This document shows, piece by piece, positions 8,563 through 9,334 of a stretch of DNA of 10,738 bases (positions within the stretch are counted from its first letter, which is position 1; each line of letters opens with the position of its first letter). Position numbers and translations under genes: made by a program. The notes below the pieces were generated by a model. It made no database searches. It saw only the letters and a list, made by a program, of their open reading frames with translations, and was not told where the DNA came from. Source of the stretch: a virus (lineage: Duplodnaviria > Heunggongvirae > Uroviricota > Caudoviricetes); IMG/VR virus record IMGVR_UViG_2693429518_000023, one strand, 5' to 3'.

Positions 8563-9114
8563 ATGACCACTTTTACAAAAGAGCAGTTAATCAGTCATGT
8601 TAGTGAAAATGTAAAGGCGATGAAATTTGCAGTAAAACAGACAGCATTCAAAAATTCTCTCGAGGCAATTGAGTTGGATTTAGCACTGGCCCTTGTTGCT
8701 CAGGCTTCGCTGGAAGCAGAGCCCGTGCTTTATATGAATCGATTTACCGGAAAGACATTCTCACTGGAAGAGCAACCCGGTGCTGATAAGGAACCGGAAA
8801 TATACGTGCCGCTATATGCTGCCCCGCCAGACAGCGCCGCCATGCTTCAGGCTGGAAACTTTCGGGAAAAAAAGGGTTCGTCAACCAACTATCCGGTAAC
8901 TCTGGATGATTGGATAAGCTGTAGTGAGCGAATGCCGGATGACGGTCAGCACGTAATTATTTTATGTGATGGCGCATTCGTTCTTTATGCGCAATATCGA
9001 GACGGTGAGTTTTTTGATGTAGTCCGTGATGGTGATGAATTTTTCGAAACACAGAGCCGCAATGTAACCGACTGGATGCCGCTACCAGAACCGCCGCAGG
9101 AGGTGCGCCAATGA
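8563..9114 (+). CDS. Phage protein with C-terminal DUF551-like domain, 183 aa from ATG 8563
   Basis: AAGGAG 6 nt upstream of ATG 8563. C-terminal MPDDGQHVIILCDGAFVLYAQYRDGEFFD...WMPLPEPP resembles DUF551 (by recollection). Track start GTG 8503 overlaps the previous stop and is the alternative. Confidence 0.7.
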   Translation: MTTFTKEQLISHVSENVKAMKFAVKQTAFKNSLEAIELDLALALVAQASLEAEPVLYMNRFTGKTFSLEEQPGADKEPEIYVPLYAAPPDSAAMLQAGNFREKKGSSTNYPVTLDDWISCSERMPDDGQHVIILCDGAFVLYAQYRDGEFFDVVRDGDEFFETQSRNVTDWMPLPEPPQEVRQ

Positions 9115-9194
9115 ACTGGCCTGAAGCATTTGCAATTACAGGCGTTGCTATGGCTATCGCTTTTTTAGTATATGTTATTTGTCGGTGGGGGTAA
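9111..9194 (+). CDS. Small hydrophobic peptide, 27 aa (MNWPEAFAITGVAMAIAFLVYVICRWG), predicted single transmembrane helix
   Basis: AGGAGGT 8 nt upstream. ATG overlaps the stop of the preceding gene (ATGA). Below the length cutoff of the ORF track. Confidence 0.45.
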   Translation: MNWPEAFAITGVAMAIAFLVYVICRWG

Positions 9195-9229
9195 AAACGT
9201 TCGCCGGGATTAACACCAAAGGAGGGAAT

Positions 9230-9334
9230 ATGTCGGATGATATCTCACTGGCAATGGAAGGTGCGCTGGCTGTTGTTGCTGTTGTGGGCGTTTACTGCCT
9301 GGTTGTGTTTTTGATGGATCGACTAGGGAACTGA
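9230..9334 (+). CDS. Small hydrophobic peptide, 34 aa (MSDDISLAMEGALAVVAVVGVYCLVVFLMDRLGN), predicted single transmembrane helix
   Basis: AAGGAGGG 5 nt upstream of ATG 9230. Below the length cutoff of the ORF track. Confidence 0.5.
   Translation: MSDDISLAMEGALAVVAVVGVYCLVVFLMDRLGN

Follow-up and report, generated by a model that had tools for sequence, protein, structure and literature searches.

Two probable micro-genes for single-helix membrane peptides precede hok in a lambdoid Escherichia coli prophage

Two short open reading frames (ORFs), here called ORF1 (27 aa) and ORF2 (34 aa), follow one another between a DUF551 gene and hok in a 10,738-nt stretch of viral DNA (IMG/VR record IMGVR_UViG_2693429518_000023), the whole of which we refer to as the window. 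The window is part of a lambdoid Escherichia coli prophage: strain fS25a matches it with 100% identity over the query, and O104:H4, O157:H7 and many other strains carry near-identical copies. We propose, with a probability of about 0.7, that both ORFs are genuine micro-genes of this prophage, each specifying a peptide that crosses the inner membrane once and has almost nothing outside it. We further infer that the peptides insert into the membrane with an N-out/C-in topology, that they have partners there and serve an accessory function, and that they are not killers of the Hok type.

Two tandem ORFs with strong Shine-Dalgarno sites

The initial annotation had described ORF1 and ORF2 as tandem ORFs with strong Shine-Dalgarno (SD) sites and single-helix hydrophobic products, and we could confirm this description by sequence, hydropathy and shuffled controls (coordinates in Table 1). 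One hydrophobic stretch makes up most of each peptide; the best 19-residue Kyte-Doolittle window scores 2.45 for ORF1 and 2.70 for ORF2, the value for Hok being 3.07. The proposed coupling of ORF1 to the upstream gene is equally clear, since the ATGA at 9111-9114 overlaps the ORF1 start with the TGA stop of the DUF551 gene, whose final codons contain the ORF1 SD. As to the SD spacing, which had been called ideal for both ORFs, this holds for ORF1 (7 nt) whereas that of ORF2 (4 nt) is slightly short.

In the whole 10.7-kb window, five ATGs have a GGAGG 4-10 nt upstream: those of two ordinary genes, one 4-codon ORF, ORF1 and ORF2. When the window was shuffled 300 times, a mean of 0.8 small ORFs per window had such an SD, and none of them additionally encoded a transmembrane (TM)-like segment. 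The two ORFs are thus a real observation that chance does not account for.

ORF1 belongs to a conserved and mobile family

The first DNA searches returned stretches of 71-78% identity, limited to the ORF1 part, in Shiga toxin (Stx) phages and other prophages, and on reading these loci we found intact homologues with the same stop overlap. For example, phage BP-4795 encodes MMNWPEAFTAVGVAIAVAFILYSLFRWG (71% nucleotide identity), with a DUF551 gene on one side and, near xis/int, a DUF4222 gene on the other, and phage 933W encodes MTWPEAFANVGTVMAVVLVVYSICRWR immediately upstream of sokW/hokW. By tblastn, the ORF1 peptide was found in 99 phage records, itself unannotated and nearly always under or beside Ea22, EaA, ead/Ea22-like or DUF551 genes. 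Scanning IMG/VR with the degenerate pattern M-x-W-P-E/D-A-F ... W-G-stop gave at least 120 loci and, among the matches listed, at least 57 distinct 84-nt alleles and at least 36 peptides, with the consensus MTWPEAFTTVGIAMAVALVVYSICRWG. The family motif combines M-x-W-P-E/D-A-F, a small-residue-rich helix (G-x-A-x-A-x-A) and C-R-W-G; lengths range from 22 to 28 aa, and the length variants (24, 25 and 28 aa) all differ by whole codons. In species-representative genomes the strict pattern matched in E. coli and Shigella only. Looser relatives, which come from tblastn and do not fit the strict pattern, are encoded by the P1-like phage SJ46 (MSWPEAFAIVGVAMAIAAIFIFWG) and by a Klebsiella prophage (MDWPTAFCIVGCAFAIAWLFRS), in both cases with a TAATG overlap with the upstream stop. 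No named K-12 homologue was found in the Rac or Qin prophages of MG1655, DLP12 and e14 being outside the check.

The ORF1 start overlaps the upstream stop in every copy, despite upstream genes of at least three unrelated C-terminal types, namely ...PEPPQEVxQ (DUF551), ...NDLKNIEQEVNR (a zinc-ribbon/coiled-coil protein like 933W L0139) and ...RNGLISxEDVLR. About 97% of 206 family copies have an SD of the GGAGG type, 7 or 10 nt ahead of the start. At the other end, the position of the stop is constant across copies, its identity being TAA or TGA, and is followed by well over ten distinct sequences, among them the hok promoter, ORF2, the DUF4222 gene and various hairpin or intrinsic terminators.

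Over 86 distinct contexts, column identity averaged over pairs starts at 0.43-0.47 (16-45 nt upstream of ORF1), rises to 0.66 in the last 15 nt, which hold the SD, and to 0.78 inside ORF1 (codons 8-25, outside the pattern constraint), and falls to 0.35-0.37 just past the stop. Within ORF1, identity by codon position 1/2/3 is 0.78/0.90/0.65. Homology runs from the SD to the stop codon, and the shape of this conservation favours a gene. Conservation of frames and SDs in related prophages, which the initial annotation had named as a check on its proposal, is indeed observed.

The changes separating the alleles tell the same for the peptide. A minimum spanning tree over codons 8-25 holds 80 synonymous, 89 nonsynonymous and no nonsense changes, when 54 ± 6 synonymous ones would be expected under neutrality (position-randomised mutations); a count of 80 was reached in 0 of 2000 simulations, and the other two frames show no synonymous excess. 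In the main clade we counted 62 synonymous, 43 nonsynonymous and 1 nonsense changes (33.8 ± 4.8 synonymous expected; 0 of 2000 simulations reached 62). The pairwise ratio of nonsynonymous to synonymous polymorphism (pN/pS) is 0.48 in the ORF1 frame compared to 0.63 and 2.24 in the other frames, and the nonsynonymous changes are chiefly exchanges among T, A, V, I, L, M and F. Judging from these substitution patterns, the ORF1 family as a whole is clearly constrained and under selection.

The claim that both ORFs are unannotated stands for ORF1, which is not called by the Prokaryotic Genome Annotation Pipeline (PGAP)/RefSeq and which a few GenBank submitters have called (for instance ETJ68712.1 and AOM45384.1, "bacteriophage protein"). 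It does not stand for ORF2, which is RefSeq WP_001278454.1 in a 100% identical chromosome. Within the known class of microproteins from phages and bacteria, ORF1 is a member with essentially no annotation, and its family is well conserved. A protein cluster mixing ORF1 with 121-aa "DUF551" proteins had suggested a DUF551-ORF1 fusion; the sequences show none, and the mixture is a clustering artefact. In Shigella phage POCJ13 (NC_025434.1; locus L003, 832-1099), RefSeq has the reverse-strand ORFs gp73 and gp72 over or beside the ORF1 homologue, and these calls are probably spurious. We also noticed that DUF551 genes ending in ...PEPPQEVN/K (loci L158, L183 and L208) are followed by another, unrelated hydrophobic ORF starting with M(D/V)SFAKYTIIDWIAFLQVLLIWFYMAYRSGQW...; small membrane ORFs after DUF551 genes may be a recurring theme.

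ORF2 is a probable, lineage-restricted gene with published ribosome footprints

ORF2 is annotated as a hypothetical protein in RefSeq, and gene calls for exactly this protein occur in 8485 index blocks of public assemblies, in each case between DUF551/ORF1 (or an interrupting insertion sequence) and hok. With a V16I allele difference, it is the same gene, in the same place before hokD, as XECs145, a ribosome-profiled gene of O157:H7 Sakai that was defined as the longest possible ORF (54 aa, with its start inside ORF1) and predicted to encode a protein of the inner membrane that has a single TM helix (Hücker et al. 2017, PLoS One, PMC5597208). The correct start of ORF2 is the SD-preceded ATG, giving 34 aa as in PGAP. 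In lysogeny broth (LB), XECs145 had 79.1 reads per kilobase per million (RPKM) in the transcriptome and 346.1 in the translatome, that is a ribosome coverage value (RCV) of 4.35, with a coverage of 0.99; the corresponding figures were 121.3, 150.1, 1.14 and 0.84 in brain heart infusion (BHI), and 73.3, 1.1, 0.01 and 0.37 under combined cold and osmotic stress (PMC5597208). This places ORF2/XECs145 among the better-translated novel ORFs of Sakai (PMC5597208). The ORF1 and ORF2 peptides are both absent from the supplements of two EDL933 translatome studies, and a full-text literature search with the peptide strings returned no papers.

Searched exhaustively with HMMER, 1.84 billion representative proteins yielded near-identical or frameshifted versions of ORF2 only and none beyond about 76% identity, and a tblastn search of 50,697 phage records gave no match. 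ORF2 thus appears to be an orphan restricted to E. coli and Shigella, and probably the younger of the two genes. Its alleles differ by seven synonymous changes (9244 twice, 9262, 9265, 9289, 9322 and 9325) and three conservative replacements (A8V, V16I and D30E). Across 126 sampled ORF2 loci, the SD and the frame are kept in all 126, third codon positions hold 23 of 36 tree changes, and 19 changes are synonymous where 12.6 ± 2.7 are expected (P = 0.016), with nothing in the other frames.

Evidence against and alternative explanations

Several observations weigh against our proposal, most of them concerning ORF1 in this lineage. Most ORF1 loci were found by a pattern requiring an intact start and end, a sample biased against broken copies. 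The ORF2-linked subclade that includes the window holds 3 synonymous, 5 nonsynonymous and 2 stop-related changes, very few events in which no purifying selection is detectable. The 126 ORF2-anchored loci are an unbiased sample with respect to ORF1: the window allele is present in 40, A17D, which puts an Asp in the helix core, in 38, and a 25-aa variant in 23. A17D is a questionable allele, as is the change of W26 to TGA, through which the final two residues are lost (15/126). A W3 nonsense codon (TAG or TGA) occurs in three unrelated copies, namely POCJ13 (amber; L003, 832-840), L007 and L204, and ORF1 copies with a frameshift or a lost start also exist, if rarely. Translation of ORF1 is a prediction from the sequence, its 27 aa being below the 30-aa minimum of the Sakai ribosome profiling (RIBOseq) study. 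For ORF2, the selection signal is weak at a low diversity (P = 0.078 outside the pattern-constrained codons) and a truncated allele exists. Moreover, the extended XECs145 start overlaps the ORF1 3' end, Sakai has several copies of the region, and the footprints are not uniquely assigned. The missing constraint on ORF1 in the ORF2-linked subclade, its common A17D and W26 nonsense alleles, and the low diversity, borderline statistics and truncated allele of ORF2 would fit the idea that in this prophage both ORFs are translated but functionless, ORF1 being a decaying copy and ORF2 a recent proto-gene carried by a successful prophage module; the broken replication gene of the prophage (see below) and the lack of distant ORF2 relatives point the same way. 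However, ORF2 changes are still mostly synonymous or conservative, its SD and frame persist in every sampled locus and it is well translated in Sakai, while the ORF1 frame is intact in 109/126 ORF2-linked loci (broken in 2/126) and its family is constrained overall. We find this idea unlikely, although the window's own ORF1 copy may be drifting or losing constraint within a selected family. Another possibility is that the conserved 84-nt block acts as nucleic acid (a recombination boundary, an RNA structure or a terminator-related signal) with an incidental frame. In its favour, the block behaves as mobile with sharp edges and sits at junctions of mosaic phage segments. Nevertheless, the codon-position pattern, the synonymous excess confined to the ORF1 frame, the whole-codon indels and a stop held in position while its identity and the downstream sequence vary are those of a coding sequence. 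Besides, the RNA of ORF1 does not fold significantly (z = +1.0), and Rfam has no match over 9085-9345. A nucleic-acid element is highly improbable.

The initial annotation had drawn a toxin-like role from the adjacency to hok, and we considered whether the peptides could be toxic in the membrane or have a link to Hok, either as killers resembling type I toxins or as Hok modulators or antidotes, the adjacency then reflecting a shared function. Both have the type I toxin trait of a small hydrophobic membrane peptide (27 aa and 34 aa; 2.45 and 2.70), ORF2 has been seen only ahead of hok and, among the matches listed, 37/127 (~29%) pattern-found ORF1 copies are directly upstream of the hok promoter and 21 more are followed by ORF2 and then hok. 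In contrast, many ORF1 copies reside outside hok contexts: they precede terminators or the DUF4222 gene near xis/int, or belong to P1-like and Klebsiella phages that have no hok. The ORFs are overlapped by two antisense sites resembling promoters, but such sites occur at shuffle frequency (2 found versus 1.5 expected). No HOK_GEF (PF01848) or toxin model in Pfam, NCBIfam or PADLOC matched either peptide at E <= 1, the NCBIfam Hok models matching the neighbouring gene only, and more broadly nothing above noise was found in Pfam, NCBIfam, PHROGs, PADLOC and PDB sequences, whether toxin, defence, lysis or structural family. Nor is there a mok-type leader or a sok-type antisense RNA: the Rfam sok/hok model matches only 9411-9586, downstream of both ORFs, and nothing over 9085-9345. 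Type I toxins are tightly silenced at translation, whereas here the SDs are strong and unoccluded, ORF1 is coupled to a well-expressed gene, the coupling being present in every copy, and ORF2 is efficiently translated in exponentially growing Sakai (RCV of 4.35 in LB; PMC5597208). The efficient translation in growing cells and the open SDs therefore argue against Hok-like or type I-toxin-like behaviour. As for a holin, antiholin or spanin, the ORFs are upstream of the DUF968, RusA and Q-like genes and not in a lysis cassette beyond Q, and no PHROG lysis family matched. Hence, of the earlier proposal, the part concerning real small membrane-protein genes is upheld, while the toxin-like role loses its ground with the missing family match, the many non-hok contexts and the open SDs. 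We consider a toxin or Hok-linked role quite unlikely, even though ORF1 and ORF2 may have a milder membrane activity or modulate Hok.

Two side observations concern the Trp codons of ORF1. They are repeatedly struck, W26 having become TGA in ~12% of ORF2-linked copies (window-type loci such as L133, L137, L138 and L141). Also, a Dcm site (CCTGG) lies in the ACCTGG of some alleles, and this might turn the codon into a hot spot of deamination leading from W3 to TAG.

ORF2 was probably inserted as a cassette

ORF2 occurs only downstream of one ORF1 subclade and only before hok. In relatives without ORF2, the hok -35 begins 8-10 nt past the ORF1 stop, and the left junction of the ORF2 segment is homologous over ~25 nt to that of these ORF2-less relatives. 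In the window, the segment is bracketed by two copies of the 11-nt direct repeat GGGTAAAAACG (Table 1). The bracketing repeat, together with relatives that run directly into the hok -35, suggests that ORF2 was inserted or recombined at this short repeat. The idea that the ORF2 cassette descends from a duplicated and since diverged hok promoter and leader, which would point to a birth de novo, was rejected: the local alignment of the interior scored 20, within the 17 ± 2.5 of shuffled sequences, the 11-nt repeat and the ~25 nt at the left junction being the exceptions to this lack of homology.

The ORF2 stop is followed by a perfect 22-nt palindrome. The 60-nt fold around it has an energy of -20.7 kcal/mol (z = -4.7), and the terminator scan did not call it. 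Possible roles of this palindrome are stabilisation of the mRNA 3' end, RNA processing and protein binding. With regard to the traits of phage morons, ORF2 is cassette-like and expressed in uninduced Sakai cultures (PMC5597208), but no plus-strand promoter was called and its 3' hairpin is devoid of a U-tract.

A model for the two peptides

In our model, an early operon transcript would carry the DUF551 gene, ORF1 and ORF2. Ribosomes ending the DUF551 gene would reinitiate at the overlapping ATG, aided by the AGGAGGT within its last codons, and produce the 27-residue peptide. Throughout the family ORF1 would usually be the last ORF of an early-operon transcription unit, coupled via ATGA or TAATG. 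The ORF1 peptide is predicted to form one membrane-spanning helix, in which Trp3 and Trp26, 23 residues apart and hence separated by about the thickness of the bilayer, would place a Trp at each interface. The Glu near the N-terminus and Arg25 near the C-terminus suggest an N-out/C-in topology, and the G11/A13/A15/A17 face of the helix looks suited to helix packing. ORF2 would have arrived as a small cassette made of SD, ORF and hairpin between the ORF1 stop and the hok promoter, and would rely on its own SD for independent translation, the product being 34 residues long, acidic at the N-terminus and built of one helix. Both peptides would act only within the membrane; as our best guess, they would associate helix to helix with a membrane protein of the host or the phage and modulate it, in an accessory early role such as host takeover or exclusion.

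Comparison with known systems

AcrZ, MgtS, MgrB, PmrR and MgtU are bacterial small membrane proteins (<=50 aa) that modulate larger membrane proteins. ORF1 and ORF2 resemble this class in size, in the single TM helix with small-xxx-small motifs, in having their own SD and in being often missed by annotation. The likeness is one of functional class only, as no homology was found with NCBIfam, and ORF1 and ORF2 are phage-encoded and mobile as an SD-to-stop module. HK97 gp15 and T4 Imm are small phage inner-membrane exclusion or "moron" proteins. They likewise are prophage-borne membrane proteins in an accessory position, and ORF2 is expressed in lysogen culture as morons are; they differ in being larger and unrelated in sequence, and ORF2 is without a called promoter of its own or a canonical terminator. 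Hok/Gef proteins are also small hydrophobic inner-membrane peptides, encoded in the same prophage segment. However, they show no sequence match to ORF1 and ORF2, which have no mok-like leader frame or sok-like antisense RNA, are shorter (27 and 34 aa versus 51 aa for Hok), lack a periplasmic domain and are translated openly instead of being silenced.

In the Ea22_V2 variant of Stx phages, DUF551 forms the C-terminal module, and ea22, which affects the lysis-lysogeny decision, is reported to be the most strongly transcribed exo-xis gene in Stx-phage infection (PMC10834534). The small ORFs of the exo-xis/ea region (orf60a, orf61, orf63, ea8.5 and ea22) are early and non-essential (PMC10834534). 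ORF1 is related to this set through its coupling to the 3' end of Ea22/EaA/DUF551-type mosaic genes, which as a lead rather than a result means that it may be co-expressed early and strongly. The exo-xis/ea proteins are soluble and 60-180 aa long, whereas ORF1 is a 27-aa TM peptide unmentioned in PMC10834534; moreover, the DUF551 gene studied here lies between the replication and nin regions rather than between exo and xis.

It is conceivable, if unlikely, that ORF1 represents an overlooked minimal TM microprotein family, an SD-to-stop module coupled to highly expressed Stx-phage Ea22/DUF551-type genes that fulfils a specific early membrane role. Candidate roles would then be the neutralising or gating of the adjacent Hok, or a part in the lysis-lysogeny effects credited to the ea22/exo-xis region, and published ea22 deletions or clones may unknowingly have included ORF1 or affected it by polarity. 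Likewise, genetic manipulation of Ea22/DUF551-type genes may also affect ORF1. Since micro-genes of the ORF1 type are found at the ends of such genes in many Stx-converting and other lambdoid prophages of pathogenic E. coli, yet are left out by standard annotation, work on the accessory early region uses an incomplete gene list. A conserved 27-residue, one-helix peptide would also be a convenient model for phage microproteins in the host membrane. As regards ORF2, the gain is one of consolidation, in that the hypothetical protein of RefSeq, XECs145 of the RIBOseq study and the ORF described here are one and the same gene, a lineage-restricted insertion before hok. Neither finding alters current concepts.

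Prophage setting and neighbouring genes

In the identical RefSeq stretch, the plus strand encodes, in this order, a helix-turn-helix (HTH) protein, an ATP-binding replication protein with an internal stop, DUF1627, DUF977 and DUF551 proteins, the 34-aa hypothetical protein (9230-9334), hokD (9581-9736), a hypothetical protein, DUF968, RusA and DUF1133. NCBIfam and Pfam recognise the products of 9524/9581-9736 as Mok/Hok.

Table 1. Positions in the window of ORF1, ORF2 and the features around them
Feature	Positions	Strand	Details
DUF551 gene (Ea22/EaA-type mosaic family)	8530..9114	+	Pfam DUF551 E = 3e-20; RefSeq WP_024218878.1 in identical strain
ORF1 Shine-Dalgarno AGGAGGT	9098..9104	+	7-nt spacer to ATG
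ORF1, 27 aa, predicted single helix, "WPEAF...CRWG" family	9111..9194	+	ATG 9111, TAA 9192-9194; product MNWPEAFAITGVAMAIAFLVYVICRWG
Direct repeat GGGTAAAAACG, 11 nt, left copy	9189..9199	+	ORF1 last codon, stop and 5 nt
ORF2 Shine-Dalgarno AAGGAGG	9219..9225	+	4-nt spacer to ATG, slightly short
ORF2, 34 aa, predicted single helix, RefSeq WP_001278454.1	9230..9334	+	ATG 9230, TGA 9332-9334; product MSDDISLAMEGALAVVAVVGVYCLVVFLMDRLGN
Perfect 22-nt palindrome CGATATGGGAATTCCCATATCG	9343..9364	.	After ORF2 stop; centred on EcoRI site; hairpin-capable, without U-tract
Direct repeat GGGTAAAAACG, right copy	9364..9374	+	Right edge of ORF2 cassette, just before hok -35
Inferred hok promoter (TTGCTG, 16 nt, TAGAAT)	9377..9404	+	Sequence reading and alignment with relatives; not called by promoter scan
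hok/sok locus, 5' part (Rfam RF01794)	9411..9586	+	113.5 bits, E = 7.5e-27
hok (hokD-type toxin)	9581..9736	+	Pfam HOK_GEF E = 3e-23; RefSeq hokD; mok frame from 9524

In the Qin prophage of K-12 (locus L329, 17120-17873), the relBE operon is directly upstream of hokD, in the place taken here by the DUF551-ORF1-ORF2 block, and the order downstream (hokD, DUF968 ydfU, Q-like ydfT) matches the window. This exchange of relBE for DUF551-ORF1-ORF2 ahead of hok marks the site as a swap point for accessory cargo. An internal stop splits the DnaC/YdaV-like ATP-binding replication gene (6559-7299), which is a RefSeq pseudogene in the identical strain, so that the prophage is probably defective.

At 9745-9826, spanning the hok 3' end and a terminator (9805-9822 plus T-run), Rfam gave a sub-threshold match to isrK, a small RNA of Salmonella prophages (27.7 bits versus a gathering score of 50; E = 8e-4). 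Finally, the minus strand carries two overlapping small ORFs of 81 aa and 124 aa at 3901-4426 that resemble a toxin-antitoxin-type gene pair, the shorter product of which has the only other strong GGAGG-ATG signal among the small ORFs of the window.

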